Shown: positions 7,779 through 55,554, numbered from the stretch's first letter. The stretch: DNA of 64,000 nt from Candidatus Aminicenantes bacterium (GCA_027025175.1 JALVRF010000127.1:16140-80139); one strand, 5' to 3'. Notes: generated from the sequence alone by a model not told the origin. Program-made: numbers and translations.

Positions 7779-8953
7779 AGTTTCCCCTTTTCGTTGCCCT
7801 CAGATACCTTTTTTCCCGAAGAAAACAGACCTTTATCTCCCTGATATCAGCGGTCTCCATACTGGGAATAACCATAGGAGTGGCCTCCCTTGTCATAGCC
7901 CTGGCCCTGATCTCGGGGTTCCACGGGGAAATCCAGGGAAAGATTCTCCAGGTCACCTCCGCCATAATGGCCACCGCCCCTGAAGGGGGATTACGGGGAT
8001 GGAAACAGGTGTGCGAGAAGATTGAGAGTTTTCCATTCGTGAAAAGGGCCTATCCCCAGGCCATATATCAGGCCCTGGCCAAGGGGCCCATTTCCATCCA
8101 GGGGGTCATGCTGCGGGGAATCTCCCTCCAGTCTCCTCCTCCCTGGGCCAGGGACAGGTTCAGGGGAAAGGGTCTTCTTATGGGGGAAAAACTCATGGAA
8201 AAACTGGGAGTTTTCCCTGGGGATCAGGTGGAAATTTACCTCCCCAGACTGGAACTTACCCCCTTCGGGGCCATGCCAAAGGCAAGAAGGGTTCTGGTGG
8301 AAGCGGGATTTTCCAGCGGGCTTTTCGTCCTGGATTCAACCTCAGCAGCCTTCCCTTTAGAACGGTCTAAGGAAATATTGGGAGAGGATTTCCCGGTAAA
8401 TTACATAAACATAGATGTGTACGATATTTACAGGGCTGAGGAATATTCCCGGAAACTGGAAAAGGCCTTTCCTGATTTCGTCTTTACCCCATGGAGCGAG
8501 ATCAACAGAACCCTTTTTGAATCCCTGAAACTTGAAAAAAAGGTAATATTCTTAGTTATAGCCCTGATAGTGGTGGTGGCTGCCCTCAACATAGTGGCTT
8601 CCTTAGTGCTTCTGGTGATGGAGAAGATAAAGGACATTGGAATCCTCATGTCCATGGGAGCAAAGAAAAGGGAAATATCCATGATTTTCATGCTTCAGGG
8701 AACCCTAATCGGGCTTATAGGAACCCTTTTAGGGGAGGCACTGGGAATCTTAGTCTCCCTTCTTGCCAATCATTTTCGCCTCATAAGAATTCCCCCGGAC
8801 ATATACCAACTTGACCATGTGCCCTTCCAGGTAAAACCCTTAGAAGCCCTGGGAGTTGGGCTTTTCGCCCTGGCAGTTAGTTTCCTCTCCACCCTCTATC
8901 CCTCAAGGAAGGCAGCATCCATTGACCCTTCGGAGGCCATAAGGTATGAGTGA
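7775..8953 (+). CDS. lolC: Lipoprotein-release ABC permease (LolC/LolE, FtsX family)
   Basis: N-terminal TM segment, MacB-like periplasmic domain and C-terminal FtsX TM bundle; followed by lolD. Confidence 0.75.
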   Translation: MKFPLFVALRYLFSRRKQTFISLISAVSILGITIGVASLVIALALISGFHGEIQGKILQVTSAIMATAPEGGLRGWKQVCEKIESFPFVKRAYPQAIYQALAKGPISIQGVMLRGISLQSPPPWARDRFRGKGLLMGEKLMEKLGVFPGDQVEIYLPRLELTPFGAMPKARRVLVEAGFSSGLFVLDSTSAAFPLERSKEILGEDFPVNYINIDVYDIYRAEEYSRKLEKAFPDFVFTPWSEINRTLFESLKLEKKVIFLVIALIVVVAALNIVASLVLLVMEKIKDIGILMSMGAKKREISMIFMLQGTLIGLIGTLLGEALGILVSLLANHFRLIRIPPDIYQLDHVPFQVKPLEALGVGLFALAVSFLSTLYPSRKAASIDPSEAIRYE

Positions 8954-24113: not shown

Positions 24114-24863
24114 ATGAGAAAGTTATTACCTTCTATCATCGCATTGTTTTTGGTTCTGCCGTTAAGGGCAGACATAGGTTTTGAATTTTTCGGTGGGGCT
24201 GGCGTGTGGTCTCTCAATCTTCTTAAAGGCAAAATTGAAAGTTTCGCCCGCGACAGAGTGGACGAGGTTTTGAAGGGTAAACTTGAAGATGAATACCCCC
24301 AACTGAGGGGAGCGGACTATCAGCATTCTGAAACTTTTTCTTCCGGTGGCGGGAGTTTCTCTGGAGGATTCAGGATTTATCCTGGCGGGAAAAATTCCGG
24401 ATTCAGCATCGGGGTCAGTTTTATAAGGCTCTCAATGGATGTAAGGGTTGACGGCAAGATAACTGTCACAAAAAGCAGTGATCGGGCCGAAATATCAGGA
24501 GGAGGAAAGGTGGTAATTAATTCCTATGGTGCCATGCTTTCACTGAGAGGGCTCCTTTTCCCCTCACTTCCGGTAACTCCTTATCTTTCCTTCGGATTAG
24601 GAGCCGGAACCCTTAAGGGGGAAATTTCCTATGAGGGAAAAGGCACTGTGTGGTATCAGGGAAATCAGGAGGATTTCAGCCAGAAGGAAACCAAGACCAT
24701 AGACCAGCTCAGGCAGGAGGAGGAAAATATTCCCAATCTCCTTCCCATGTTGCAACTGGGAATCGGAATAGACGGAAAGGTAGGCGGAGGCTTATCCTTC
24801 TTCGTAGAGGGCGGAATTCTCGACGGTTTCTATGTGGGCGGTGGTATGCTTTACAGGTTTTAA
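24114..24863 (+). CDS. Putative outer-membrane beta-barrel protein
   Basis: Signal peptide MRKLLPSIIALFLVLPLRA, Gly/aromatic-rich alternating strands, C-terminal ...GGGMLYRF. Confidence 0.5.
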   Translation: MRKLLPSIIALFLVLPLRADIGFEFFGGAGVWSLNLLKGKIESFARDRVDEVLKGKLEDEYPQLRGADYQHSETFSSGGGSFSGGFRIYPGGKNSGFSIGVSFIRLSMDVRVDGKITVTKSSDRAEISGGGKVVINSYGAMLSLRGLLFPSLPVTPYLSFGLGAGTLKGEISYEGKGTVWYQGNQEDFSQKETKTIDQLRQEEENIPNLLPMLQLGIGIDGKVGGGLSFFVEGGILDGFYVGGGMLYRF

Positions 24864-26212
24864 AAGTAGAGCGTGAATTCCCCAGGAGTTGGCCTCCCGT
24901 AGACTAAATTTATCTCCTCCCGCTTCAGGGAAATCCACTTGGAAATCAACGCCTCGCTGAAAACATCATCACGAAGTAAATAGTCATTTTCATCTTCCAG
25001 TTCCTTGAGAGCCTGTTCCAAGGAACCTGGCATCTCCTCCTTTAAAATAGCCCTACCCTCCTCAGCGGGTCCATAGCCCATTTCTACAGGATCAAGTTCC
25101 TTTATAACCCCGTCCAGTCCTGCCATTATTATGGAGGAAAGAATCAAATATGGGTTCCCGGTAAAATCAGGGGTTCTGAATTCTATCCTTGTCCTATCTG
25201 GGTCCTTAATGTATCCAGGAATCCTGATGGCCGATCCCCTGTTTCCCCTGCCGAAACTTATGGAGGAAGGGGCCTCAAAACCGCCCCTGAGCCTTTTATA
25301 GGAATTGGTGGACGCATTGGTAAAGGCTGCCAGGGACTTGGCATGGTAAAGAAGTCCGCCTATGTAATGGAGGGCCTTCGTGCTGAGATTTGCATATCCC
25401 TCATGACTATAAAAAACATTTTTTTCGTTCTTCACCACCATTTGATGGAGGTGCCAGCCGGTGCCCGCCTGATTATAGATGGGCTTCGGCATAAAGGTCA
25501 GGAAAAATCCCTTACTTGATGCCAGACCTTTGAGTAAATACTTGATTTTGATGGCATTATCCGCCGTCTCCAGTGTGGGAGTAAAAACGGTCTCTATCTC
25601 CTGCTGACCTGACTGGCCAACTTCATGATGGTGGTATTTGACCCTTATCCCTGCCCTTTCAAGGAGAGATACTGCGGAGTCCCTGAAATCCAGGAATTCA
25701 TCCTCGGGCAATTCCCTGTGATATCCGTTGTAATACTCTCCTTTCTCTGAACTCAGATGAAAACCGCTGGAAAATGGCTCCTGATAAAATTCCGCATTGT
25801 GAAAAATGTAAAACTCGTACTCCGGTCCCCAGTAGAGGTCATCGCCCATCCGGGTTTTCTTCAAGACCTCCAGACTTTTCTCCAGTATGAATCTCGGGTC
25901 CAGGGGATAACGGGTCCTGTCCTTGTCGGCCATGTGTATTGAACAGAGGAAGGACATGGTAGGCTCTTCGTGGAAGGGGTCCAGAAAGCCTGTTTCCAGA
26001 ATGGGCTTCAACACTAAGTCCGAGGATTCAATCTTCACATATCCATAACTGGAGCCATCAAAGCCCACTCCCTCCTCAATTATGTCCTCAAAATAAGAAC
26101 CCGGCAAAGTTACATGGTGAAGTCTACCCCTCAGGTCAAGGGCTTTAAGGTCCACGTATTTTATCTCTCCGTTCCTCAACCTGGCCAGTATTTTTTCCCT
26201 ATCCATGAGCAC
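24860..26212 (-). CDS. glnA: Glutamine synthetase, type I (short, alpha-like)
   Basis: 450 aa with an N-terminal beta-grasp and catalytic-domain motifs (e.g. NASTNSYKRL). GGAGGTG RBS. Confidence 0.85.
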   Translation of the reverse strand: MLMDREKILARLRNGEIKYVDLKALDLRGRLHHVTLPGSYFEDIIEEGVGFDGSSYGYVKIESSDLVLKPILETGFLDPFHEEPTMSFLCSIHMADKDRTRYPLDPRFILEKSLEVLKKTRMGDDLYWGPEYEFYIFHNAEFYQEPFSSGFHLSSEKGEYYNGYHRELPEDEFLDFRDSAVSLLERAGIRVKYHHHEVGQSGQQEIETVFTPTLETADNAIKIKYLLKGLASSKGFFLTFMPKPIYNQAGTGWHLHQMVVKNEKNVFYSHEGYANLSTKALHYIGGLLYHAKSLAAFTNASTNSYKRLRGGFEAPSSISFGRGNRGSAIRIPGYIKDPDRTRIEFRTPDFTGNPYLILSSIIMAGLDGVIKELDPVEMGYGPAEEGRAILKEEMPGSLEQALKELEDENDYLLRDDVFSEALISKWISLKREEINLVYGRPTPGEFTLYF

Positions 26213-26250: not shown

Positions 26251-27423
26251 ATGATGATAAGCACAGGGGAAATTAAGAAGGATTATCAATCGCTAAAGGG
26301 TGCAGACTACAGGGATATCTATGCGGAGGAAGGTATTCACCGGGTTGTAAAAGACATAAAGGGAAAAGTATCCCATTTTTACCATAAGGAAGCAGGAAAA
26401 GCCCTGAGGTGGATTAGCGGAGAATCGGAATTCCTGAGGGCCCAGTCTCTGCCAGTTCAGGAGGAAGCCGGGGATGATTTGTTCCTGGAAGAAATCGTTC
26501 GAAGGCTCAGGGATCGGGGAGTAGAGGGGGATATAACTGTCAGCGCCAGCGTCAAAAAATCCCTGGTTTTCAATGGAGAAAACCTGTTCAAAAAGAGGGA
26601 GGAAATTTACATATTGAAAGCCAGAGAAAAGGGAATCATGCAGACCTCAATTTTCACTTCAAGACCCGGGGATGTTTTCCTTGACGGCTTCGTCAGCGAA
26701 TTGCAGGAGAAGCAGAGGGCCAGGAAAGCATCAAGGCCTGTTCCCAAGGAGGGGGAAGTTTTTCTTCTCTTCACCGAATCCGCAGCCTCTTTTTTCGTCC
26801 ACGAAATACTCTGGCATCCACTGGAACTGGACCTGGTCCTCAAGGGAGAATCATTTCTTGACCTATCATCATTAGGGGACATGGTTTTCCCTGAAGAAAT
26901 TTCACTATCCTCTTCCTCGCCGTTTCCCGACGATGAAGGCAATCCTCCGGGAAATTTCAGCCTTATTGAAGAAGGGAGACTCGTCAATTTTGCCTCTTCA
27001 GTTTTTTATTCCCTCCTCTCAAAAATGCCCCTTGTCCCACATGGAAGAAGAGAAAGGTATTTCCATCATCCTGAGGTAAGGCCGCAAAAAACCTTCATTC
27101 ACAGGGGAAAATTATCACAACTGGAACTTTTGCGGAAGATAAATCGGGGAATCCTGATAAGGGAAGTGGAAAAGGCCTGGGTGGACTTTGCAAGAAGCAG
27201 AGCAATTTTCAAAATAAATCTTGGCTACTGGATAGAACAGGGCGAAATCACTTTTCCCATCCCTCACGCGAGGGTATGGGTAGACCTGCCCATCAGGGAA
27301 ATCTGGCTTTCCACCGAACTTAACCGGGAAGAGCATTTTTTCTGTATAAAAGAAGGGCAGAAGGTGGTTTTTTCTTCTCTTTCCCCTGATTTCCTTATAA
27401 AGGGCTATGTTAAAAATGATTAA
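26251..27423 (+). CDS. TldD/PmbA-family metallopeptidase (TldD-like, short form)
   Basis: HExxxH motif FFVHEILWHPLE and a C-terminal GYWIEQGEITFPI...CIKEGQKVVF block typical of peptidase U62. Confidence 0.6.
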   Translation: MMISTGEIKKDYQSLKGADYRDIYAEEGIHRVVKDIKGKVSHFYHKEAGKALRWISGESEFLRAQSLPVQEEAGDDLFLEEIVRRLRDRGVEGDITVSASVKKSLVFNGENLFKKREEIYILKAREKGIMQTSIFTSRPGDVFLDGFVSELQEKQRARKASRPVPKEGEVFLLFTESAASFFVHEILWHPLELDLVLKGESFLDLSSLGDMVFPEEISLSSSSPFPDDEGNPPGNFSLIEEGRLVNFASSVFYSLLSKMPLVPHGRRERYFHHPEVRPQKTFIHRGKLSQLELLRKINRGILIREVEKAWVDFARSRAIFKINLGYWIEQGEITFPIPHARVWVDLPIREIWLSTELNREEHFFCIKEGQKVVFSSLSPDFLIKGYVKND

Positions 27424-28405
27424 GGCCGCAGAAAAAATAATAGAATACCTCCAGTCTGAGGGCTATGAGGGGGATGTTCTTGCCTTTAAGGAAGAAAGGA
27501 TAAGCGTCAAAAGGGAACTGGGCCTGAAAATGGGGTTTTCAAGAAGAGGAGGTTTTTCAACCCGGTGGAGGGAAAGCAGAAAAGGTGTGTTCTTTCATTT
27601 CTCTACTTCCCCCGCTATAAACCCGGAAAGGGCCTTTATTATAAGCGAGGCAGTGGAACTACCCTTACCATCAAGAATAAGAAAAAGTGCGGTTAAACTC
27701 AGGGATGAAAGAGGTTTGCCAGTAGGAGAGGAAATTGAATTTCCGGACTGGATTTTTGAATTTGGCGGAATAGAAAGGAGTCTTCTCATTCAAAATACCC
27801 GTGGAGCCAAAAGTAACTATTCGGAAACACTGTTTTTCTTCAGAGGGGAAATCGCAGGGGAGGAGTTGTTCGCCTGGAGCAGGAAGAGGGATTTTCCCAA
27901 AAATATCCAGAGTCCAGGGGGAAAATACCTGGTGCTTCATCCTCTGGCCAGTTTCAAACTTATAAGGACCCTGCTCTCCGGTGAAATTAACATCAAGGGC
28001 TTCCCGGCGAGTATAATAGAAAATCCAGCCATAGACTACGCCCCTGGAAGTCACCCCTTTGACGCCTCAGGAAGGGATATGAAAAGGAGGCTTGTCTTTA
28101 AGAAGGGCAAAATTAAAGCCCAGAAGCCCATACATCTTCTGAGAAAAACCCCGGACTCCCCACCTTCCCTGGGCTGGACAAACATAATAATGGAACTGCC
28201 CACTGTATCCTGCGATTATTTCATCCTTGTTTTAAATCTAAAAGTATATGGGACGATTACAGAACTCATAACAGAGGACGGCAAAATAAGGGAAATCAAT
28301 ACAGATACTCTTCTTTCCTCTGTTAGCGGCAAGATAAGGGACGGCTGGTTTATAGGGCCTCCCTTCATAAAATCAGATTATATACTTCTCTCTCAGTACT
28401 CGTAA
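27407..28405 (+). CDS. TldE/PmbA-like partner protein (no HExxxH)
   Basis: Weak PmbA/TldD N- and C-domain resemblance. Overlaps the TldD-like gene by 17 nt. Confidence 0.45.
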   Translation: MLKMIKAAEKIIEYLQSEGYEGDVLAFKEERISVKRELGLKMGFSRRGGFSTRWRESRKGVFFHFSTSPAINPERAFIISEAVELPLPSRIRKSAVKLRDERGLPVGEEIEFPDWIFEFGGIERSLLIQNTRGAKSNYSETLFFFRGEIAGEELFAWSRKRDFPKNIQSPGGKYLVLHPLASFKLIRTLLSGEINIKGFPASIIENPAIDYAPGSHPFDASGRDMKRRLVFKKGKIKAQKPIHLLRKTPDSPPSLGWTNIIMELPTVSCDYFILVLNLKVYGTITELITEDGKIREINTDTLLSSVSGKIRDGWFIGPPFIKSDYILLSQYS

Positions 28406-28532: not shown

Positions 28533-28596
28533 TTGACATTTCAAGATTTTTCTGTCAAGGACCTTTCTTGACTTGTCCTGTTTTTTCTTTTACACT
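28533..28596 (+). promoter_or_regulatory. Promoter/operator region: three TTGAC-type half-sites in alternating orientation, plus TTGACT-N17-TACACT
   Basis: TTGACA (28533) ... TGTCAAG (28552) ... CTTGACT (28566). Candidate -35 TTGACT with -10 TACACT 17 nt downstream. Lies upstream of the gene at 28625. Confidence 0.35.
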
Positions 28597-28624: not shown

Positions 28625-29311
28625 ATGAGGAAATTGCTGGTAACTTTTTTATTTTTGGGCTTACTGGGAGCGGTGGAGATCAAAATTAACAATCATGATC
28701 TCAACTGTTCCTACATCATAACCAAGGATAAACCCATCGGAAAAATATTCAGCTCCATGGACGAGGACTTTAAAAAACAAACCTTTGCCGAGGGGGACAT
28801 AATATTCGCAAAGGGCAACCTGAACATAGGAGAAAGTTACACGATCATAGGACAGGAAGCCTCCCTCTCTCACGGTTATAAGGTTTACCGTCTTCAGGGA
28901 TACGGTAAAGTGCTCCGTAAGGAAGGCAAGGTTTTTCTTATTAAGGTGGAGAAATCATGCACAGGGGTCAGGCTCGGCTCTCTCTTATATCCGCTAATTT
29001 CCGAAAGGGGTTTTACCCTTAACCTTGAACCAATAAAGAAAGACACCGTAGCCCCCCCGGGGCCAGCCGGCCATGTATTATTTATAGAATCCTTCCTTAA
29101 ACAATTGGGGGAAGGATGGGCCATAATTGATGGGGCCAAAAAACTCGGCCTTAAAAGGGCCGACATCGTGATGGTTTTCCAGAAACTGGGAGATGTGAGA
29201 AAGCCAGTTTCCCTGGGTGTAGTTCTAAGGACTGCCGGAGACTATGCAGTGATACAGACCCTTCTTCCCATATCTGCGGTGAGAAAGGGCTACTTAGTTT
29301 ATAAGAAATAA
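28625..29311 (+). CDS. Secreted hypothetical protein (228 aa)
   Basis: Signal peptide MRKLLVTFLFLGLLGA. GGGAGG RBS. Confidence 0.5.
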   Translation: MRKLLVTFLFLGLLGAVEIKINNHDLNCSYIITKDKPIGKIFSSMDEDFKKQTFAEGDIIFAKGNLNIGESYTIIGQEASLSHGYKVYRLQGYGKVLRKEGKVFLIKVEKSCTGVRLGSLLYPLISERGFTLNLEPIKKDTVAPPGPAGHVLFIESFLKQLGEGWAIIDGAKKLGLKRADIVMVFQKLGDVRKPVSLGVVLRTAGDYAVIQTLLPISAVRKGYLVYKK

Positions 29312-29327: not shown

Positions 29328-29540
29328 ATGGAAAGAAGAAACCTTTCGTCCAAAACTATCAAGATTGAAAACAAAAAATTTCATTTTGACCTTATGGAAA
29401 ACCACAGGGGCAAGTATCTGAGAATAACCGAAAAAAGCGGGGGTAAATCCAGCATAGTTATTCCTGAAAGTGGCATAAAGGAATTCAAACAGGCCCTGTT
29501 GGAATTCCTTCAGGAAACAGAGGCAGAGGCTCTTTCCTGA
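29328..29540 (+). CDS. PUR-alpha-like (DUF3276) small nucleic-acid-binding protein
   Basis: KTIKIENKKFHFDLMENHRGKYLRITEKS...IVIPESGIKEFKQAL matches the PUR repeat consensus. Confidence 0.45.
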   Translation: MERRNLSSKTIKIENKKFHFDLMENHRGKYLRITEKSGGKSSIVIPESGIKEFKQALLEFLQETEAEALS

Positions 29541-29582: not shown

Positions 29583-30899
29583 ATGCGTAGGAGAGTTCTT
29601 ATCATGGGGGCAGCGGGAAGGGATTTTCATAATTTCAATGTTTATTTCAGGGACAGGGAGGAATTTGAGGTAGTTTGTTTTACCGCCACCCAGATTCCCA
29701 ACATAGAGGGCAGGGTTTATCCTCCTGAACTGGCGGGAAAACTCTACCCTGAAGGAATTCCTATCTATCCCGAATCGCAACTAACTGAACTTATCAAAAA
29801 ATACAAAATTGAAAAGGTGGTTTTCGCCTACAGTGATGTCTCCCACGAGTATGTTATGCACAAGGCCTCAGAGGCCATGGCTGCAGGAGCCTCCTTCTCC
29901 ATTCTCGGTCCTGATGAGACCATGCTGGAATCCAGGCTTCCTGTGGTGGCAGTAACAGCGGTAAGGACAGGATGCGGGAAAAGCCAGACATCCAGAAAGG
30001 TGGTGAGAATCCTGGCAGACCACGGTAAAAAAGTAGCGGTAATCCGTCATCCAATGCCCTATGGCGACCTGGTGGCCCAGAGGGTCCAGCGCTTCGCCTC
30101 CTTTGAGGACATGGACAGGGCCAACTGCACCATTGAGGAAAGGGAAGAATACGAACCTCACATAAGGATCGGAGCCGTGGTCTGGGCCGGAGTGGATTAC
30201 GAAGCAATCCTCAGGGAGGCAGAGAAGGAGGCAGATGTAATCCTCTGGGACGGTGGGAACAACGACCTCCCATTTTACAAGCCTGACCTCCATATTGTAG
30301 TAGCAGATCCCCACAGACCAGGTCACGAGAGAAAATACCATCCAGGAGAGGCCAATTTCCGCAGGGCGGATGTCATAATAATCAACAAGGAGGAAACCGC
30401 AGACCGGACCGGTGTGGAGGAAATATGGAACTCCGCCAGGGAACTCAATCCCTCCGCCATACTTATAGACGCAGCTTCCCCCATCTTCGTGGAAGACGGT
30501 GGTCTCATAGGAGGAAAGAAGGTTCTGGTCATAGAGGACGGTCCCACGGTAACTCACGGGGAAATGGGATACGGAGCAGGATATATGGCTGCCAAGAAAT
30601 ACGGAGCAGCGGAGATAATTGACCCCAGGCCCTTTGCTGTAGGTTCCATCAGGGATACCTTCAACAAGTACTCGCACCTGAAAGAAGTGCTGCCTGCCAT
30701 GGGATACGGAGCGCAGCAGATAAAGGAATTGGAGGAAACCATAAACAACTCCGATGCGGAAGTGGTAGTGGTAGCAACCCCCATTGACCTGGGAAGAATA
30801 CTTAAGATTGACAAGAAGGCAGTAAGAGTTCTCTATGAACTTCAGGAAATAGGAGAGCCCACCTTAGAGGATGTCCTGAAGCAGAAGGGTATTATATGA
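29583..30899 (+). CDS. P-loop protein of unknown function: N-terminal Rossmann/CoA-binding-like domain plus a Walker-A (GCGKS) domain, possibly DUF1611-like
   Basis: VLIMGAAGRDFHNF...; VVAVTAVRTGCGKSQTS; WDGGNND. Stop overlaps the arcC start (ATGA). AGGAGGTG RBS. Confidence 0.5.
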   Translation: MRRRVLIMGAAGRDFHNFNVYFRDREEFEVVCFTATQIPNIEGRVYPPELAGKLYPEGIPIYPESQLTELIKKYKIEKVVFAYSDVSHEYVMHKASEAMAAGASFSILGPDETMLESRLPVVAVTAVRTGCGKSQTSRKVVRILADHGKKVAVIRHPMPYGDLVAQRVQRFASFEDMDRANCTIEEREEYEPHIRIGAVVWAGVDYEAILREAEKEADVILWDGGNNDLPFYKPDLHIVVADPHRPGHERKYHPGEANFRRADVIIINKEETADRTGVEEIWNSARELNPSAILIDAASPIFVEDGGLIGGKKVLVIEDGPTVTHGEMGYGAGYMAAKKYGAAEIIDPRPFAVGSIRDTFNKYSHLKEVLPAMGYGAQQIKELEETINNSDAEVVVVATPIDLGRILKIDKKAVRVLYELQEIGEPTLEDVLKQKGII

Positions 30900-31840
30900 A
30901 GAGGGTTGCGGTAATAGCCTTTGGAGGAAACGCTCTTCTTCCTTCGGACAGCCAGGGAACCCAGGAAGAGCAGTTTGCCAGGGCTAAGGAGGCTTCCGAA
31001 AAAATAGCGGAACTTATCAGCAGAAATTACGATGTGGTGGTGGTTCACGGAAACGGTCCCCAGGTAGGTAACCTCCTCCTGCAGATGGAAACCGCCGCTG
31101 ATATCATCCCCCCCTTCACCTTAGATGTGGCAGATGCCATGACCGAAGGTTCCATAGGTTACATGCTCCAGACCTGGCTGGTTAACTACATGAGGATACT
31201 CTCCATAGACCGCGAGGTGGAAACAGTTCTAACACCGGTGCTGGTGGACCCTCTGGATCCGGCCTTCAAAAACCCCACCAAGCCAGTGGGCCCATTTTAC
31301 ACTAAGGAAAAGGCAGAAAGACTGGCAAAGGAAAAGGGATGGGTGGTGATGGAGGATGCAGGAAGGGGATGGAGGAGGGTGGTTCCCTCTCCCAAACCCA
31401 TTGATATCCTGAACAAAACTGTTATAAAGGCTCTGGTAAAGGAAGAGGTAGTGGTGATTGCAGGAGGGGGAGGCGGGATTCCTGTGATTATAAATCAGGA
31501 CGGTCTGGTGGAAGGGGTTGAGGCGGTCATAGACAAGGATTTCACCGCAGCCCTCATAGGGAAAATAATAAAGGCCGATATGCTGATAACCCTTACCGGG
31601 GTGGAACAGGTTTACCTTGACTACGGAAAGCCCACCCAGAGACCGCTAAGGAAGACCACCATGGAAGACGTGAAAAAATACCTTCAGGAGGGTCAGTTCC
31701 CTCCGGGCTCCATGGAGCCGAAAATTAGAGCAGCCATTGATTTTCTGGAGGGTGGGGGGAAGGAGGTTCTAATAACCTCAGCGAAGAAATTGAAATCCGC
31801 CTTAGACGGAAGAACCGGAACCAGAATAATAAGGAGGTAA
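30896..31840 (+). CDS. arcC: Carbamate kinase
   Basis: VIAFGGNAL, VVVHGNGPQVG; amino-acid kinase fold, 314 aa. Confidence 0.85.
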   Translation: MKRVAVIAFGGNALLPSDSQGTQEEQFARAKEASEKIAELISRNYDVVVVHGNGPQVGNLLLQMETAADIIPPFTLDVADAMTEGSIGYMLQTWLVNYMRILSIDREVETVLTPVLVDPLDPAFKNPTKPVGPFYTKEKAERLAKEKGWVVMEDAGRGWRRVVPSPKPIDILNKTVIKALVKEEVVVIAGGGGGIPVIINQDGLVEGVEAVIDKDFTAALIGKIIKADMLITLTGVEQVYLDYGKPTQRPLRKTTMEDVKKYLQEGQFPPGSMEPKIRAAIDFLEGGGKEVLITSAKKLKSALDGRTGTRIIRR

Positions 31841-31843
31841 GTT

Positions 31844-32746
31844 ATGAAAAAGGACCTTTTGACCATAAAGGAACTCACTAAGGAGGAAGTTTTTTCCCTG
31901 TTTGAAGACGCCAAGGAACTCAAAACCAATCCCGGGGCTCACCGCCAGGACCTTAAGGGGAAGATTCTGGCCATGATTTTTGAGAAACCCTCCCTGAGGA
32001 CCAGGGTCACCTTTGAGGCTGGAATTTACCAACTGGGAGGTGTAGGAATTTACCTGGCTCCCCAGGATATTCAACTGGGGAAAAGGGAAGCCGTGGAAGA
32101 CGTGGCGAGAAACCTATCCCGCTGGGTAGACGGCATAATGATAAGGACCTTTGGCCAGGACATAGTGGAAAAAATAGCCAGTGAAGCATCAGTTCCGGTG
32201 ATAAACGCCCTTACCGATCTCTATCATCCCTGCCAGATTCTCGCCGATCTCTTCACAATCTGGGAAAGGGGACACAAGTTAGAGGAATTCACCTTAGCCT
32301 ATGTAGGAGATGGAAACAACATCGCCCACTCCCTCATCTGGGGAGCCGCAAAAACAGGACTACACCTGAGGATAGCCACCCCGGAGGGTTTTGAGCCCAA
32401 AAGGGAAATTCTTGAAGAAGCCCTTTCCCAGGGGGCAGATATAAAACTTTTCCACAACCCTGTGGAGGCAGTAAAGGGGGCCGATGCCATTTATACAGAT
32501 GTGTGGGCATCCATGGGCCAGGAAGCCGAAAGGGAAACCAGGAAGAAAATTTTCATGCCCTTCCAGGTGAACATGGAACTCTTCTCAAAGGCCAAGCCCT
32601 CTGCCTATTTCATGCACTGCCTGCCGGCTCACAGGGGAGAAGAGGTTACCGATGAGGTCCTGGACCATCCCAGGTCCATAGTTCTGGATCAGGCTGAAAA
32701 CCGCCTCCACATTCAGAAGGCTATTATGAGGAGGTTAATGGGATAA
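31844..32746 (+). CDS. argF: Ornithine carbamoyltransferase
   Basis: STRTR (carbamoyl phosphate binding), HPCQ, DVWASMG (ornithine binding), HCLP. Confidence 0.9.
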   Translation: MKKDLLTIKELTKEEVFSLFEDAKELKTNPGAHRQDLKGKILAMIFEKPSLRTRVTFEAGIYQLGGVGIYLAPQDIQLGKREAVEDVARNLSRWVDGIMIRTFGQDIVEKIASEASVPVINALTDLYHPCQILADLFTIWERGHKLEEFTLAYVGDGNNIAHSLIWGAAKTGLHLRIATPEGFEPKREILEEALSQGADIKLFHNPVEAVKGADAIYTDVWASMGQEAERETRKKIFMPFQVNMELFSKAKPSAYFMHCLPAHRGEEVTDEVLDHPRSIVLDQAENRLHIQKAIMRRLMG

Positions 32747-34465
32747 ATGGAAAAGGAAAAATTTTTAAACAACGTCCTTTCCGGGGGAAAGCAACCTGTT
32801 TCCCTTCAGAAGGTGGTTGAAGAGTTTGCGAAAAAAATCCTGGAGGAAGAGACCCTTGAGGCGGTCAAGATTTATGATCCGGATTGCAGATACGAGGTAG
32901 GGGACCTGCTTTATAAAGAATTTGACGAAAAACTCCGCGTAGGAAGGGATAAATTCGTAGAATTTCACGCTGGAGCAGTTCTGAAGGTAGTGGAGAAAAA
33001 ATACTCCAAGGAGTTAGGCTGTTATCTCATCGGACTTGAATACGAGGGGGGAGGTCCCCTGAAGGAACATTTCAAATATCTGGCCCGGGCTAAAGTAGGT
33101 TATTACCTTCCCAGTTATGAACTTAAAGAATGCCCTGAACTTCCTCCAGAAAAGGACCCCAGAAAGACCGAAAGGGAACCATCGGAGGAACTTCTCAAAA
33201 GGTGCAGGAGGGAAATCCTGGAGTTAGTAGAGAAGGACAAAAACATATACCGGTGGGGAGATTTCCTGATTCAGGCATCCTCATTGAAGGAAATTAACGA
33301 TGAGCACATAAAACAGGTGGAAGAATACATAAAGGGGAAGAGTTCCTCGGCCTCCACCGAAGAACTGGTAGAAAGGGTCCTGGGGAAATCCAGAGATTCC
33401 GAAGACTTCCCCATCTGGTGCCTTTCCCTTAACAGAGCCCTGTCATCAAAAAAGTTAACCTTCGTTCTCGTTTCAAAGAAGGGATTTGGGAAGTGGAACA
33501 CCTGGCTTAATCTGGTAAACCTGGAGAAAAACCTGCCCATAAAGGTCAAAAGAACCCTGCCTGTTTTTACCGCTCGCTCCAGGGTGGAGATAGAGACCTA
33601 TCTCAGGGAGTTTGAAAAGGGGGAGAAAAAAGCCGAGGCCAGAAATAAACATATATTGACCTGGAGGGAAGTCCTCTCGGGAGCAGTGAAGGTCAGAAAG
33701 GGTTTCAGGAATTTGCTGGGCGGAGAAATGGAACTCAAAGCCGTTTCCAGAACTGGAGAATACACAGTTTATTACTATCCTGAGAAAAACATGATTCTCG
33801 GACTTTCAGGATATTACAGGGAAAACCTGGTGGTCCAGGCATCCCAGCTTTTCTTAGAATGGAAGGAAGACCAGTTTGAACTCTCCCTGAGGACCGAGAA
33901 AAAACCCTTCAGGGCCCCGATGCTTACCTATAATCCCGAAGATGACTCCTTTGCTTTAAGGGATGCCGAAGTTTCCACTGAGATGGATGTGGAAACCAGA
34001 GCCTTTCTCAGCAGGGAAGAACTTCAATTGCTCCTGGGAAAGATTAACCAGTGGCGCCGAATAAGGGACCTTACAGCCCTGGTGAGAGAACTGGTTAAGA
34101 GTTTTGGAGACCCTCAGCAGGATTTCAAAATTCACTATCTCAAACTCTTCCATCTGCTGGACATAATTCACGGCACGCCAAAGGAGGACCTGCTCAAAGC
34201 CCTCCTGGGAAATCCTGAGTTCTACCAGGAGGAAGGCGAGTTTGGATACTTCAAACTCGACCTGAACCGGGCTGTGGAAATTCCAGTGGAGAAAGAGGAA
34301 AAGGCTGAAGAATCCCCTTCATACGAGCCCTCATCGGAAAAGTTAGCAGGGTTCAGAAAGCCGAAAAGGAAGAAAAAATACCGGAAACCCTCCAGACCGA
34401 AGGCCTCCAGGGAGGGGTTCTTTGCTGAGAAATTAAAGGAAGCCCTGGACAAAAAGGAAGAATGA
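32747..34465 (+). CDS. Hypothetical protein, 572 aa, soluble, with a basic C-terminal tail (KPKRKKKYRKPSRPK)
   Basis: ATG immediately follows the argF stop (TAAATG). No recognisable domain. Confidence 0.5.
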   Translation: MEKEKFLNNVLSGGKQPVSLQKVVEEFAKKILEEETLEAVKIYDPDCRYEVGDLLYKEFDEKLRVGRDKFVEFHAGAVLKVVEKKYSKELGCYLIGLEYEGGGPLKEHFKYLARAKVGYYLPSYELKECPELPPEKDPRKTEREPSEELLKRCRREILELVEKDKNIYRWGDFLIQASSLKEINDEHIKQVEEYIKGKSSSASTEELVERVLGKSRDSEDFPIWCLSLNRALSSKKLTFVLVSKKGFGKWNTWLNLVNLEKNLPIKVKRTLPVFTARSRVEIETYLREFEKGEKKAEARNKHILTWREVLSGAVKVRKGFRNLLGGEMELKAVSRTGEYTVYYYPEKNMILGLSGYYRENLVVQASQLFLEWKEDQFELSLRTEKKPFRAPMLTYNPEDDSFALRDAEVSTEMDVETRAFLSREELQLLLGKINQWRRIRDLTALVRELVKSFGDPQQDFKIHYLKLFHLLDIIHGTPKEDLLKALLGNPEFYQEEGEFGYFKLDLNRAVEIPVEKEEKAEESPSYEPSSEKLAGFRKPKRKKKYRKPSRPKASREGFFAEKLKEALDKKEE

Positions 34466-34483
34466 TATAATTTTCATATAAAA

Positions 34484-34556
34484 GGGCGGTTAGCTCAGGC
34501 GGGAGAGCGCTGGTTTCGCACGCCAGAGGTCAGGGGTTCGAATCCCCTACCGTCCA
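34484..34556 (+). tRNA. tRNA-Ala (anticodon CGC)
   Basis: Acceptor GGGCGGU/ACCGUCC with the G3:U70 alanine identity pair. Anticodon loop UU-CGC-AC. T-arm AGGGG-UUCGAAU-CCCCU. Confidence 0.85.
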
Positions 34557-34564
34557 CTTTAGCC

Positions 34565-36656: not shown

Positions 36657-38204
36657 ATGAAGGAAATACTTGTTTTTGACGCAGAACTAATGGGGAACTA
36701 CGACCGCAGGGCAGAGGAAGAATACGGCATTTCCTCACTGATATTGATGGAAAATGCCGGGGGGTGGGTGGCCAAGAAAATCCTGGAGATGGAGGATGTT
36801 TTCGTGGTTACGGTGGTGGCCGGACCGGGAAACAACGGGGGAGATGGCATAGTTGTGGCGAGACATCTGCAGAACCACAGCCTTTCAGTTAATCTCATCC
36901 TTCTGGCCGCCCCGGAGAAACTAAAGGGAGACGCTAAAAAGAACTTTGAAATAGCCCAGAGGAGCGGCCTCAACATCTTTGTAGCCAGGACAGAAAGCGA
37001 GTGGGACGAACTTCTTCCCTTTATAGAAAGGGCGGATGTGGTGGTTGATGCCATCTTCGGAACAGGACTTAAGAGGGAGGTAAAGGGAATATTTGCCCGG
37101 GCCATAGAGGATATAAACCTTCTGGCACCAAGAATAGTGTCCGTGGACATTCCCTCAGGGGTCTCCTCGGAGGACGGTTCAGTAATGGGGCTTGCCGTGG
37201 AAGCGGATCTTACGGTCACCTTTGAAGCACTTAAGTTCGGCCACATATTTCCCCCGGGAGAGGGTTTCTGCGGAGACATAGAGGTGGTAAAGATAGGGAT
37301 TCCCTTAGATGCCTACGAAGGAGAGGAGCTGCCCTATCGCCTTACCTATCCTGAGGGCCTATTCCCGGCCAAATTATTAAGAAGGGAGCCAGATTCCCAC
37401 AAGGGGGATTATGGACATGTTCTTGTGGTGGCGGGAAGTCTTGGAAAAACAGGGGCTGCGGCCCTGGCCTCAATGGCAGCCCTTAAGGCAGGGGCTGGGC
37501 TGGTGACCCTCGCTGCACCAGCTGATGTCCTTTCCCTTATCCCCATTCCCCCTGAAATTATGATCTATCCCCTCCCTTCATCCAGCGGCAGGATAAACAG
37601 GAAGGCCATTGACCTTATTGAGGATATGCTTCAGGGAAAAACAGTCCTTGCTGCTGGGCCCGGGCTTGGGACATGGGAAGAAACTGGGGATTTTCTGGTG
37701 GAACTTTTAAGGAAAGCCAGCATTCCCAAAATCCTGGATGCCGATGCTCTGAACATTCTGGCTGCCAGGGGAGGAGAGATTCCAGGACACTCTCTCACCG
37801 TTCTTACTCCTCATCCAGGGGAATTTTCAAGGCTGACTGGAAAGCCCAAGGAGGAAAATTTAAGAAGAAGACTTGAGCAAGCCAGGGAATATGCTATAAA
37901 GCACGGGGTTTTCCTGGTGCTTAAAGGTTACAGAACCGTAATAGCCACCCCTGACGGGACGGCTTACATAAATTCCACAGGTAATCCTGGAATGGCAACC
38001 GGGGGAAGCGGGGATGTCCTTACAGGGATAATAGCAGGGTTTCTCGCCCAGGCCAACGAAGAGGAATTTGAGGAAGCCTTAGTGGAGGCAGTGGGTTATC
38101 ACGGATTGGCCGGAGATTTAGCTGCCTCAGAACTCACCCAGCCTTATCTTACCGCCGGGGACATAATTGAATACCTCTCAGAGGCCTTTAAGGAAAATGT
38201 CTGA
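36657..38204 (+). CDS. nnr: Bifunctional NAD(P)H-hydrate repair enzyme (NAD(P)HX epimerase/dehydratase)
   Basis: YjeF-N and carbohydrate-kinase-like YjeF-C domains. Confidence 0.85.
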   Translation: MKEILVFDAELMGNYDRRAEEEYGISSLILMENAGGWVAKKILEMEDVFVVTVVAGPGNNGGDGIVVARHLQNHSLSVNLILLAAPEKLKGDAKKNFEIAQRSGLNIFVARTESEWDELLPFIERADVVVDAIFGTGLKREVKGIFARAIEDINLLAPRIVSVDIPSGVSSEDGSVMGLAVEADLTVTFEALKFGHIFPPGEGFCGDIEVVKIGIPLDAYEGEELPYRLTYPEGLFPAKLLRREPDSHKGDYGHVLVVAGSLGKTGAAALASMAALKAGAGLVTLAAPADVLSLIPIPPEIMIYPLPSSSGRINRKAIDLIEDMLQGKTVLAAGPGLGTWEETGDFLVELLRKASIPKILDADALNILAARGGEIPGHSLTVLTPHPGEFSRLTGKPKEENLRRRLEQAREYAIKHGVFLVLKGYRTVIATPDGTAYINSTGNPGMATGGSGDVLTGIIAGFLAQANEEEFEEALVEAVGYHGLAGDLAASELTQPYLTAGDIIEYLSEAFKENV

Positions 38205-38619
38205 ATACCAATCCAGATCAGAGGAGGAAACGAAAAAAATAGGGGAAGAACTGGCAAGAAGCCTCAGGGGGGATGAGGTGGTGCTAATATACGGTCCCCT
38301 GGCCAGCGGAAAAACCGTATTTGTAAAGGGGATGGCAAGGGGGCTGGGTATAGATGAAGCCCTGGTCTCCTCCCCCAGTTTCACCGTTATGAACATTTAC
38401 TCAGGGGAAAAACTCCTTTTCCACTTAGACCTTTACAGAACCCGGGAAAGGGAACTGGAATTTCTCGGAATTGAGGATTTTTTAGGCATGGGGGTTTTAG
38501 CAGTGGAATGGGGGGAAAAGGCAGAGGGCCAGCCCTGGGCCAGCCCGGCCGTTAAGGTTCGCATATTTCCCCGGGGAGAAGACCGGGTTATAAAGATAGA
38601 AAGGCAGGTGAACACTTGA
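38167..38619 (+). CDS. tsaE: tRNA threonylcarbamoyladenosine biosynthesis protein TsaE
   Basis: P-loop LIYGPLASGKT; conserved pairing with yjeF. Confidence 0.8.
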   Translation: MNTSQRPLRKMSEYQSRSEEETKKIGEELARSLRGDEVVLIYGPLASGKTVFVKGMARGLGIDEALVSSPSFTVMNIYSGEKLLFHLDLYRTRERELEFLGIEDFLGMGVLAVEWGEKAEGQPWASPAVKVRIFPRGEDRVIKIERQVNT

Positions 38620-41117: not shown

Positions 41118-42245
41118 ATGAATACCTGGGACGCAATCATAATTGGCGGTGGAATTATAGGTCTTTCCACCGGTTATTATCTTGCCAGGAACGGTAAAAA
41201 GGTTTTACTCCTGGAGCGTAGAGAACTGGGAGCCGGTTCCACAAGCCGATGTATAGGGGGAATAAGACAACAGTTCTCCACCCCGGGTTCCATCCGTTTA
41301 GCCATGAAGTCCGTGGAACTCTTTTCCCGCATGGAAGAAGAATTCGGTTTCTCGGTGGAGTTTGCTCAGACCGGTTATCTTTTCCTGATTTTTACCGAGG
41401 AGCAAAAAAGGCATTTCCTTGAGGTTATGCAATTACAGAAATCCTTGGGACTTGAAGTTTATTTCCTGGAAAAGAAGGATGTGGAAGAACTGGTGCCGGG
41501 AATTGACTCGCGGGACCTGATGGGCGGTGTTTACTCCCCCAAGGACGGTCAGGCTTATCCCTTTGCAGTGCTCAAGGGAATGGCAGAAGGGATAATGAGC
41601 CAGGGAGGGGAGGTAAAACGAAGAACAGAAGTGGTGGGAATAATCCAGGAAGGGGGAAGGGTAAAGGGGGTTCTTACGGGCCGGGGAGAAAAGTTCTACG
41701 CTCCTGTGGTTGTAAATGCTGCGGGTCCCTGGGCGAAGCAGGTGGGTCAGATGGCAGACGTTGAACTTCCCACTGAACCGGAAAGGCACGAGGCCTTCAT
41801 AACAGCGAGACTCCCCTACAGAAAAATACCCATGATAGTAGATTACAGGCCCGACGGTGGGTATTTTCAACAGAGGATAAACGGTCAGATAATAGGCTGC
41901 TATACCCCAAAGCCCAGGGTTCCGGGGCCCAGGGAGGACTCATCCTTTGAATTCATTGGGGAAATGAGTTACAGGATTGTCAGGGTAATACCCTGGCTGA
42001 AAAATTCTCTGGTTCTAAGGCAGTGGGCCGGAGCCTATACCATGACCCCGGACGGCAGTCCTATAATTGACGAGACGGAACTTGAGGGTTTCTTCGTGGC
42101 CGTGGGCATGAGCGGTCACGGTTTCATGTTCGGACCGGCTGTAGGATGGAGTCTTGCAGGGAAAATCGTCCAGGACGAATGGCCCTTACCCATGGAGGAG
42201 TTTTCCCTCAGGAGGGAGTTTTCTTCTGAGGAGGCTCTGAAATAA
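41118..42245 (+). CDS. FAD-dependent oxidoreductase (DAO family; glycine oxidase / sarcosine oxidase beta-like)
   Basis: [19 protein letters not shown] GxGxxG dinucleotide motif. Confidence 0.75.
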
Positions 42246-43231: not shown

Positions 43232-45544
43232 TTACCCTCCTAAGATTTTCTTGGTAATTAATTTAAGTTCCCCAAGAGCCTCCCCGGCACTCTGGAATCT
43301 CTTGCCCCTTTCCTTCTCCAGGCATTTCATGATAAAACGATCCAGGGATTCAGGAATGCCCGGGCGATATGTTGAAGGGGGGAGAGGGGACTCTTCTATA
43401 TGTTTTTTCATAACCTCAACCCTGTCCTTTCCCAGAAATGGAGGCCTGCTGGCCAGAAGGTGGTAAAGGGTTGCCCCTGCGGAATAAATGTCGCTCCTTT
43501 CGTCTACCGTAGAGCCCATGCATTGCTCCGGCGACATATAAAAGGGAGTACCGGATATCTTGCCCTTCTCCTTTTCTATTTCGGATGCCAGAACAGCAAG
43601 GCCGAAGTCCATAACCTTTAATTTCTTATCCTTGGTGAGCATTATGTTCTGTGGCTTTATGTCCCTGTGAATTACACCGTTCCTGTGGGCATATTGAAGT
43701 GCCGAGAAAAGCTTTGAAGCCACGAAAAGAACCTGTTTTATGGTAAATTTTCCCTTTTCCTTAAGGTAATCCAGAAGGGTTTTACCTTCAATATATTCCA
43801 TAGCAATAAAGTAGCGGTCGTTAAATTTTCCCACATCGTATATTATCACTATGTTGGGATGGGAAAGTTTGGCAGCGGTTTTTGCCTCAGCCAGGAATCT
43901 CTCTATGGCCCTCTTGTTGAGGTCCAGTTCCTTTTTAAGAAGTTTAAGGGCTACGGTCCTGTTGAGAACAGTATCCTCTGCCTTGTAAACAGAGCCCATT
44001 CCTCCCTTCCCTATAAGGGCGATGATTCTGTATCTCTTCTGAGGCTGGGAAGTCTTCTCCTCAAGTTCCTTCAACTTGTTAACTGCCTGGGCTAACTTTT
44101 GCATCCTTTCCTTGGCATCAAGATAGTTTATGTCAAGGCTGCTTACTGATTTGAACATTTTATAGGCTTCCTGATATCTACCCTGTGCTTCCGCTATAAG
44201 TCCCAGAAAATAATATATGTCCAGGTTTGACTTGGATATGGGTTCCCCCTTAAGGGCGATTTTAAACCTCTCTTCTGCAAGTTCGTATTCCTTTTTGTCC
44301 AGGAATAGTTTTCCCAGCATAAAACTGGCTCTTTCAAATTCAGGATCCTGCCTCTCCACCTTCTGGAGATTCTCTATGGCTAATTCCTCATCTCCAAGGT
44401 AATAATAGGCTATGGAACCGGCCTGGAACCAGTTTCTCCCCTTCCTGAACATGGACTCTGCCCTGCGATATAATTCATCCTTTTTACCACTATCAATTTC
44501 TTTGTCAGCCATTTCTTTGAGAATTTCCCCTGCCTTTGAGAATTCGCCGGCCTTCTCAAAGGCAAACAGGGCTTTGTCAGGTTGCCCGGCCAACCTATAA
44601 AGTTCCCCTGCCTTGTTCCAGAGGCCATCTTTAGAGTAGCATTCGGCCGCCTTTTTCAATTCACCGTTCCATTCGTAGAGTTCTGCAGCCCTGCCGTAAT
44701 CCCCTGCAAGTTCAAAGTGTTCTGCTGCTTTAAGGTGCTGGCCCTCACTGAGATAATATTCACCCAGCAACATATTAGCCTTTCCATGTTCTCCAGATTT
44801 CTTGTATAGTTCGGCTGCCTTTTCAAATAAGCCTGCTTCCTCATATTCCCGGGCTGCCTCGGTAAAATTTCCTTTTCTGTTCAGAATTTCCGCTGCCTTA
44901 TCGTGCCATTTAACCTTCCTGGCCAGGGAAAGTGCCTTTTCCACATTTCCGGCCTGTTCATAAAGATCAATGGCCTTCTGAAGTGCAATCCGGGCCGATG
45001 GTTTTAACTCCCTGGCGTCGAGGAAAATCTGATCCACCCAGTTCTCAAAGCACCATGCGGCCTTATCGGGCTTCCCCGCCTTTTCATAGCACACCCCTGC
45101 CCGATCCAGCAATCCTATGGATTCGTAAAGGGAGGCGGCTCTTTCCCATATACCGTGCTTTTCGAGAAGTTGAGCCGCTTCCTGTCGTCTGCCAACATCC
45201 TCATAGGTCTGGGCTGCTTTTTTAACGTCCTTGAGTTCGTTCAGATAAATTCTGACCGCCATTTCATAATCGCCGCTCTCCTGGTACAGGGCCGCAGCTT
45301 TTTTTAGCATCCCATTTTCTTCGTACATGGAGGCTGCTTCGCTTAGCAATCCTGCTTTTCTGTACATTTCCTCCGCTTTCTCCAGCATTCCAAGTTCTCT
45401 ATAATGGGAGGCGGCGTCCTGATATCTTTCCTCTTTTTCTGACCTTTTAGCTGCCCTTAATTTGGCCTCTTTTTTTCCAAAGAAAAAACCAACCAGTTTC
45501 TCTATCCCCTTAAGATCTCCGGTTTTTTCTTCCCTTTCTGGCAA
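43232..45544 (-). CDS. Ser/Thr protein kinase with an N-terminal TPR/Sel1-like repeat array
   Basis: Kinase subdomains [33 protein letters not shown] in the C-terminal half; about 12 TPR-like repeats in the N-terminal half. TTG start with GGAGG RBS. Confidence 0.8.
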
Positions 45545-54951: not shown

Positions 54952-55554
54952 ATGGACATGAAAAAAAAGAAAGGCAATGAGGAACTCCCGAGGGATCTGC
55001 GGGAATTGCTCCCTATTCTGGAAGCCAGATTTGAGGAATTGCAGAGGAAATTTGATAACTTTTTCCTGGGGCTCGAGAAACGTCCCCCTCTCAGGGAAAG
55101 GGACGATCTCCACAGAAGACTCCTGAAACTGGTGGACATAAAGGGTTACCAGTACAACTTCATCTATCGGGCAAAACAACTGATACTGAAATTTAACACC
55201 TATAACGCCATGTGGGAAAGAATGCTCCGCAGGCTGGAAGAGGGAGAGCCTCTGGAAAGGGTTAGAAGAATGGGGGCAGGTCTGAGAAGGGGCCGGGAAA
55301 AGAAACCGGAGGAGAAAAAGGAAAAGGATTGGCTGGAAGTTTCCTCCCCGGCTGAACTGGAAAAAAGTCTTGACCGCCTTTACGACTGGCTAAGAAGAGA
55401 AAGCGAAAAACGGGGAATGAATATCATGGACAGGGAGGCCTTCAAGAAAAAACTCCTGCCCCAACTCAGGGAAAAGGCCACAACCAATAAACTAAAGATG
55501 AAGGTAGACCTTTCCTCTGGTAAACCCAAGATAAAGATAAAGAAGGAAAAATGA
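54952..55554 (+). CDS. Hypothetical charged, probably coiled-coil protein (200 aa)
   Basis: SD-like GAGGAG upstream; its stop overlaps the kinase start (ATGA). Confidence 0.45.
   Translation: MDMKKKKGNEELPRDLRELLPILEARFEELQRKFDNFFLGLEKRPPLRERDDLHRRLLKLVDIKGYQYNFIYRAKQLILKFNTYNAMWERMLRRLEEGEPLERVRRMGAGLRRGREKKPEEKKEKDWLEVSSPAELEKSLDRLYDWLRRESEKRGMNIMDREAFKKKLLPQLREKATTNKLKMKVDLSSGKPKIKIKKEK

Follow-up and report, generated by a model that had tools for sequence, protein, structure and literature searches.

A block of four genes in the genome of a Candidatus Aminicenantes bacterium raises the question of which pathway is served by a carbamate kinase and an ornithine carbamoyltransferase (OTC) encoded between two proteins of no recognized family. 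The block occupies positions 29583 to 34465 on the + strand of a 64,000-nucleotide (nt) stretch (GCA_027025175.1, JALVRF010000127.1:16140-80139), referred to here as the window, from whose first nucleotide the window coordinates are counted. A sequence-only reading of this DNA had singled out the block as a candidate for an undescribed system. Our analysis gives good grounds for regarding the first three genes as an arginine synthetase pathway operon (arcE-arcC-arcB/argF) of an Aminicenantes-type bacterium and the fourth, here called P4, as encoding a coexpressed, noncatalytic accessory protein. Because gene 1 falls, very probably, in the ArcE family, the supposed undescribed system would be the arginine synthetase pathway (ArcE-ArcB-ArcC), which had already been described in 2024 (PMC11032458).

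The claim of a gap-free and tightly coupled four-gene operon was borne out by the coordinates of the four + strand open reading frames (ORFs) and by the junction sequences. The arcE gene (29583 to 30899; 438 amino acids [aa]) has a good ribosome-binding site, AGGAGG, 7 nt before its start, and its stop codon overlaps the start of arcC (carbamate kinase; 30896 to 31840; 314 aa), with ATG and TGA merged as ATGA at 30896 to 30899. The arcC stop codon, TAA, lies at 31838 to 31840, only 3 nt ahead of the ATG of the OTC gene, arcB/argF (31844 to 32746; 300 aa). The Shine-Dalgarno sequence of the latter, AAGGAGG (31831 to 31837), had been placed 4 nt after arcC and is actually found within the last two arcC codons, just 5′ of the TAA. 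The OTC stop codon (TAA, 32744 to 32746) directly abuts the ATG of P4 (32747 to 34465; 572 aa). A terminator scan found no terminator-like site between the four genes and none after P4. The arcE-arcC-OTC arrangement is translationally coupled, and P4 is probably both cotranscribed with the arc genes and translationally coupled to them. Since database searches returned homologues for all four ORFs, these are genes rather than chance ORFs.

The family to which gene 1 is assigned was defined through TK2200 of Thermococcus kodakarensis, a formerly hypothetical protein, some of whose homologues are annotated as putative GTPases. TK2200 was identified as an arginine synthetase, ArcE, catalyzing the reaction Arg + ADP + Pi <-> citrulline + NH3 + ATP (Michimori et al. 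2024, PMC11032458). The enzyme came to light because it co-occurs with arcC in genomes without arcA, lies near arcB/arcC in some genomes, and together with OTC and carbamate kinase constitutes the arginine synthetase pathway as defined in that study. TK2200 was reported to have a nucleotide pocket like that of LpxK (4EHY) and a distant kinship to cyclic 2,3-diphosphoglycerate synthetase (cDPGS), homologues of which were used as the outgroup of the ArcE family. The listed ArcE hosts include Caldisericum, Lokiarchaeota, Chloroflexi, and many others (PMC11032458).

Gene 1 matched no Pfam or NCBIfam family above threshold; its sub-threshold matches were to cobW, CbiA, LpxK, and HypB only, and its sole PDB sequence match, to cDPGS, was marginal (phmmer E of 0.07 over 108 residues). 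The family around it is very large and unusually conserved, with >8000 matching database clusters. The top 120 clusters, from bacteria and archaea, were 69 to 96% identical to gene 1 and, where named, were called "GTPase" or "cyclic 2,3-diphosphoglycerate synthase"; >100 clusters carry one of these names at about 70% identity to gene 1. Misannotation of ArcE under both names is widespread. A scan of species-representative genomes recovered 80 loci with homologues 63 to 72% identical over their full length, corresponding to the ~435- to 445-aa "hypothetical/GTPase" family delineated by the ArcE authors. These loci come from Aminicenantes, Caldisericota, Chloroflexota, WOR-3, Melioribacteraceae, Calditrichota, Thermoplasmatota, Asgard (metagenome-assembled genomes [MAGs] of Heimdall- and Hermodarchaeota), and Bathyarchaeia and include Caldisericum sp. 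AR60 at 70% identity; the best genome loci carry the label Candidatus Aminicenantes. Two motifs are invariant across the aligned homologues, namely, the P-loop RTGCGKSQT (residues 128 to 136), which contains the GCGKS Walker A sequence noticed earlier, and WDGGNND (residues 222 to 228). In one Symbiobacterium sp. MAG (L017), two arcE paralogues (7001 to 8299 and 10208 to 11506; 68% and 65% identical to the query) are no more than 3.5 kb apart, and an OTC gene immediately precedes them.

Fold and genomic context point in the same direction. The AlphaFold (AF2) model of gene 1 (predicted local distance difference test [pLDDT] of 92) has a P-loop NTPase fold near LpxK (4EHY; Foldseek E of 1e-8; target template modeling [TM] score of 0.65). 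Its best solved neighbor is cDPGS (8oru; Foldseek E of 3e-18), to which its similarity is low, at 16% identity. The DUF1611-like character once suggested for gene 1 did not hold up: there was no Pfam match, and the Foldseek matches to 2g0t and 2obn (E of 2e-5 to 8e-4; TM of 0.21 to 0.30) show a remote fold resemblance only, far behind those to cDPGS and LpxK. In addition to the window operon, 26 of the 80 genome loci have arcC and/or OTC genes no farther than 7 kb from arcE. By family membership, fold, and context, gene 1 very likely belongs to the ArcE family (arginine synthetase, or ATP-forming arginine deiminase), and its predicted arginine synthetase activity follows from homology to TK2200. 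The statement that the protein is not an arginine deiminase is correct in that it lacks the classical ArcA fold and incorrect in that the ArcE family functionally performs the arginine-to-citrulline step. The functional tie that had been suspected between the P-loop protein and its two neighbors is supported by ArcE family membership and by the 26 loci with arcC/OTC adjacency; the protein does match a well-characterized enzyme, ArcE, but one of related rather than unrelated function.

The identities proposed for the two middle genes stand, both scoring above NCBIfam equivalog cutoffs. The arcC product reached 379.3 bits against TIGR00746 (cutoff, 358.25), with residues 5 to 312 aligned to model positions 3 to 308 of 309, and also matched PF00696 in Pfam. 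The OTC reached 403.6 bits against TIGR00658 (cutoff, 280.85) and 437.9 against NF001986 (cutoff, 306), and HCLP and DxxxSMG motifs are seen in its translation. The NCBIfam model for putrescine carbamoyltransferase was below its cutoff on gene 3 (295 versus 500), as were the models for aspartate and N-acetylornithine carbamoyltransferases.

We infer a catabolic direction for the operon. ArcE would convert L-arginine, ADP, and Pi to citrulline, NH3, and ATP; OTC would phosphorolyze citrulline to ornithine and carbamoyl phosphate; and carbamate kinase would use carbamoyl phosphate and ADP to form ATP and carbamate, the latter decomposing to CO2 and NH3. The net yield would be 2 ATP per arginine converted to ornithine. 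Since every step is reversible, the same enzymes could equally serve as a source of carbamoyl phosphate or, in principle, of arginine. In T. kodakarensis, the arginine synthetase pathway supplies carbamoyl phosphate (2026 follow-up, PMC13260591).

The three enzyme families are the same as those of the T. kodakarensis pathway of ArcE (TK2200), ArcB, and ArcC (PMC11032458, PMC13260591), where ArcE is likewise a ~440-aa P-loop protein remotely similar to cDPGS and LpxK. In T. kodakarensis, however, the genes are scattered (TK2200, TK0871, and TK2158), whereas those of the window form one overlapping operon that carries P4 as a conserved fourth gene and encodes a predicted ArcE activity. The host of the window operon is an Aminicenantes-group bacterium, a group not listed as an ArcE host in PMC11032458. 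Compared with the classical arginine deiminase (ADI) operon, arcABC(D)(R), the block shares OTC, carbamate kinase, and the common course from arginine through citrulline to ornithine and carbamoyl phosphate and on to ATP. It differs in lacking ArcA, a hydrolytic enzyme of the guanidino-modifying fold, and in having no arcD antiporter gene; no arcA-like, argG/argH, carAB, or arcD gene was detected among the window proteins scanned with Pfam. The first step of the ArcE route would also conserve energy, with a yield of 2 ATP per arginine versus 1 for the ADI route.

The protein encoded by P4 presents a different problem. Single-sequence and profile searches, with P4 and also with its relatives, gave no match in Pfam, NCBIfam, PADLOC, or PDB sequences, in agreement with the earlier remark that this 572-aa protein has no domain detectable from sequence. 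A word-indexed search returned only 27 clusters of homologues, and an exhaustive profile search of 1.8 billion representatives returned 164 homologues, many of them fragments; one homologue is labelled Candidatus Aminicenantes. The alignment comprises a conserved globular region of ~510 residues, a variable low-complexity linker that is acidic and then basic, and a C-terminal motif, G-[FL]-F-A-E-K-L-K-x-A-L, that is near-invariant among the relatives. In the AlphaFold model (pLDDT of 85), disorder is limited to residues 514 to 557. The secondary structure of the model suggests an approximate layout of N-terminal helices, an SH3/Tudor-like barrel (~39 to 125), a winged helix (~181 to 262), a B3-like barrel (~300 to 415), a second winged helix (~416 to 507), a disordered acidic-then-basic linker (508 to 556), and a terminal helix, GFFAEKLKEAL (557 to 567). 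The Lys/Arg-rich tail noted earlier is real (KPKRKKKYRKPSRPK; net +7 over residues 508 to 556), and the positive charge of the protein is concentrated there.

The P4 model resembles only winged-helix, HARE-HTH, and B3 domains, and there is no catalytic fold among the top structure matches. Its likeness to the N-terminal HARE-HTH domain of RNA polymerase (RNAP) delta and to the B3 pseudobarrel (plant VRN1/FUS3/VAL1 and the BfiI C-domain) is at the level of fold only, with 6 to 16% identity. To our knowledge, no known protein has HARE-HTH and B3 domains in the order seen in P4 and, in addition, an SH3-like barrel, a disordered basic tail, and a GFFAEKLKEAL helix. The model suggests a nonenzymatic multidomain protein, representing a new family, in which modules of nucleic acid-binding or RNAP-binding type are combined with a basic tail. 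A membrane-spanning protein was considered and rejected, as there is no hydrophobic segment (maximum Kyte-Doolittle 19-residue mean, 0.79). A role in defense or restriction-modification was also rejected: fusion or adjacency to DNA methylases is confined to very distant relatives, PADLOC gave no match for P4, P0141, P0164, P0191, P0196, P0231, or P0260, and its one match, in the distant P4 relative P0284, fell in the fused methylase domain. As observations on the wider family, P0284 (938 aa), a very distant relative of the central part of P4, is fused to an N6 DNA methyltransferase, and P0196 (1058 aa; locus L090), also very distant, is encoded after genes for an N4/N6 methylase and for a helicase/RNase T protein of 1739 aa. 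The central module of P4 is apparently reused in systems acting on DNA.

P4 was found behind arcE-arcC-(OTC) in every Aminicenantes-type locus examined. Homologues 27 to 34% identical to P4 stand directly 3′ of arcE-arcC-OTC in L008, L029, L032, L039, L048, L056, L070, and L082 to L085; in L001, L072, L091, and L092, a homologue from the same identity range stands directly 3′ of arcE-arcC in a block without OTC; and in L095, a 51% identical homologue follows arcE-arcC-OTC. Across these relatives (27 to 51% identical) and several flanking contexts, the P4 start falls between 23 nt inside the preceding gene and 47 nt after it. The flanks themselves vary: many loci have thrS-infC-rpmI-rplT-pheS and a metallophosphoesterase gene upstream, the window and L095 have genes for a 228-aa protein of no assigned family and a PurA-like protein, and L072, L091, and L092 show other contexts.

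Several points weigh against the reading of the block as an arginine synthetase operon with its own accessory gene. The activity of gene 1 is transferred through family membership only, and the direction of flux is judged from only 64 kb of genome. None of the folded domains of P4 is basic; their charge is near neutral or acidic, and the B3-like region has an isoelectric point of 5.5, atypical for a DNA-binding B3 domain. Among the loci examined, P4 is absent from the arcE operons of all other phyla. A 307-bit relative, P0176, which ends in GLFAEKLQAAL, is encoded among rpoD-like, rph, and parB-type genes, and more distant relatives (P0191, P0195, P0260, and P0263) stand alone rather than beside arc genes. 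Finally, a gene pair, nnr (YjeF_N plus Carb_kinase) and tsaE, directly follows P4 in L072 (11549 to 13439) and L091 (7709 to 9623) and lies 2.2 kb downstream of P4 in the window (36657 to 38619, + strand), where tRNA-Ala, galU, archease, and DUF4097 genes intervene. This position represents residual wider synteny, and the proximity of nnr-tsaE to P4 in all three places means that part of the linkage between P4 and the arc genes may be inherited gene order.

It is quite plausible, though short of probable, that P4 has no functional tie to arginine and is a housekeeping DNA- or RNAP-associated protein held in place by a gene order that is hard to break in Aminicenantes. The setting of P0176 with its shared C-terminal motif, the stand-alone relatives, the arcE operons of other phyla without P4, and the wider synteny (thrS-infC-rplT-pheS upstream in many loci and nnr-tsaE or a DAO-family gene downstream in several) are all consistent with such a protein. 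However, the position of P4 directly behind arcC or OTC (-23 to +47 nt) extends to the OTC-less loci, and the linkage has been kept although identity drops to 27 to 34% and the flanks differ; such persistence usually reflects selection for coexpression. The linkage to arcC and OTC holds for P4 within Aminicenantes-type loci and not in the arcE operons of other phyla, and the proposal that P4 is a component of the pathway finds no support in those operons or in the unrelated contexts of its distant relatives.

With the block read as an arginine synthetase operon, P4 is probably an accessory or regulatory passenger rather than a pathway enzyme, and its modules and position suggest a lineage-specific regulatory or DNA/RNAP-associated accessory expressed with the pathway. 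Regulation of the operon itself is a possible role. Classical ADI operons often have their own regulator (ArcR/ArgR), which offers a possible analogy, although P4 is unrelated to the Crp/Fnr-type ArcR or to ArgR. Only tentatively, and with some doubt, might one go further and see in P4 a new family, combining RNAP delta-like winged helices, a B3-type barrel, and a conserved C-terminal docking helix, that acts as the dedicated regulator of the Aminicenantes arginine synthetase operon or couples it to transcription or nucleoid state. If P4 is a regulator, it would be the functional counterpart of the ArcR/ArgR of classical arc operons with an unrelated architecture.

An anabolic operon is unlikely but deserves attention. 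Carbamate kinase would then make carbamoyl phosphate from NH3, CO2, and ATP, OTC would make citrulline, and ArcE would aminate citrulline with ammonia and ATP, which would amount to a route of arginine biosynthesis independent of argininosuccinate synthetase and lyase (argG/argH). ArcE works in both directions and, given citrulline, allows arginine to be formed in vivo (PMC11032458); the authors of that study raised the biosynthetic option for organisms without argininosuccinate synthetase and lyase. The OTC of the window also fits best the short (~300-aa) NF001986/TIGR00658 models, with the PRK04284/PRK12562 models (~330 positions) under their cutoffs. Against this, the equilibrium favors arginine breakdown (K = 10.1; ΔG0′ = -6.8 kJ/mol) (PMC11032458), and carbamate kinase was unable to replace carbamoyl phosphate synthetase as the carbamoyl phosphate source in T. 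kodakarensis (PMC13260591). Cotranscription of arcC with arcE and OTC resembles catabolic arc operons, and the Pfam scan of window proteins found no ornithine biosynthesis genes argBCDJ.

It is very improbable that gene 1 has nothing to do with arginine and is instead a cDPGS or a GTPase metallochaperone of the G3E/SIMIBI class (HypB/UreG/CobW-like): homologues are so named in databases, sub-threshold cobW, CbiA, and HypB matches exist (Pfam and NCBIfam), and cDPGS (PDB 8oru, 8ork, and 9sxb), of similar length and likewise made up of an N-terminal Rossmann-like domain plus a P-loop domain, gives the best match among solved folds, but identity to solved cDPGS is 15 to 16% with no significant sequence similarity (TM of about 0.45), its substrate differs, it serves as the outgroup of ArcE, TK2200 prefers ADP over GDP (8% relative activity with GDP) (PMC11032458), the GTPase family matches are far under their cutoffs (17 bits versus 20.7 and 15.6 versus 121), and the context is arcC and OTC, the Pfam scan of window proteins having revealed no genes of hydrogenase, urease, or cobalamin systems.

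Transcription signals around the operon differ between groups of loci. In the mesophilic Aminicenantes loci L008, L029, L032, L039, L048, L056, L082, and L084, a k-mer search found a conserved sigma70-type promoter (TTGCAT/TTGATT with an extended -10 element, TGTATTATACT) about 60 to 90 nt upstream of arcE, and arcE to P4 is therefore the likely transcription unit there. This promoter was all that the search yielded across the P4-containing loci; no shared operator motif was found upstream of arcE. In the window, a gene for a PurA-like (PUR-alpha repeat) single-stranded DNA/RNA-binding protein with a single repeat (29328 to 29540, + strand; 70 aa; PF04845, E of 2e-12) lies 42 nt upstream of arcE. 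A 69% identical counterpart is directly upstream of arcE in L095, and the gene is absent from the mesophilic loci, where the promoter takes its place. In the window/L095 clade, the PurA-like gene may occupy first or second place in the transcription unit, and the arc genes are bracketed by two proteins of nucleic acid-binding type, PurA-like upstream and P4 downstream. Further upstream, a gene for a 228-aa protein (28625 to 29311, + strand) with a hydrophobic N terminus, as judged by eye, and no Pfam family is preceded by a promoter-like site (28568 to 28596); the protein is weakly conserved, tblastn matching it at 29% identity to the syntenic position in L095. The 3′ end of the PurA-like ORF contains a near-perfect 16+16-nt palindrome, AAGGAATTCAAACAGG C CCTGTTGGAATTCCTT (29478 to 29510, + strand; 33 nt), which stands some 70 nt ahead of arcE and is unusual by a rough rather than computed statistical estimate. 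It was rejected as an operator in view of its location within the ORF, its absence from the nearest fetched relative (L095), and an RNA fold z-score of only -1.85.

Downstream, tRNA-Ala(CGC) (34484 to 34557, + strand; ARAGORN; Rfam RF00005, 64 bits) begins 18 nt after the P4 stop codon and ends 7 nt before a galU-like gene. There is no terminator-like site between P4 and the tRNA, which may be cotranscribed with the operon. Rfam gave only tRNAs, and a regulatory RNA in the operon was discarded as a candidate. An FAD-dependent oxidoreductase gene of the DAO family lies directly downstream of P4 in L084 (10232 to 12448), L085 (6410 to 8626), L008, and L056; within these spans in L084 and L085 the DAO gene is followed by a proline racemase-family gene, and L008 and L056 have DAO only. 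The DAO gene of the window (41118 to 42245; 33 to 38% identical) is 6.6 kb downstream. These neighbors may have to do with what becomes of ornithine or proline.

The rest of the window has the character of a diderm housekeeping region, with genes for BamA, LpxA, LpxI, a ClpB-like protein, RecA, Mur enzymes, and aminoacyl-tRNA synthetases. The arc operon, which would release ammonia, has a glutamine synthetase gene (24860 to 26212, - strand) 3.4 kb upstream and oppositely oriented; this amounts to no more than proximity, and no conserved linkage of glutamine synthetase and arc genes was seen in relatives. Two overlapping + strand genes encode a protein with a PmbA/TldD C-terminal domain (26251 to 27423) and a 332-aa protein without a Pfam match (27407 to 28405), possibly its divergent TldD/PmbA partner. 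The window also encodes two large Ser/Thr protein kinases (43232 to 45544, - strand; 55551 to 58400, + strand), each fused to a long TPR array, and the order of the domains in one is the reverse of that in the other.

Aminicenantes are an uncultured phylum of sediments and the subsurface, thought to ferment amino acids. The arginine synthetase pathway, previously characterized only in one archaeon, would be encoded in this phylum as a compact, translationally coupled arcE-arcC-arcB operon, which would add a 2-ATP-per-arginine route to metabolic reconstructions of Aminicenantes. What is new here is modest, namely, an operonic, bacterial version of the pathway and a conserved fourth gene of an undescribed protein family. 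With its link to arginine still putative, P4 offers a tractable lead both to the regulation of this pathway in bacteria and to an unstudied multidomain family.

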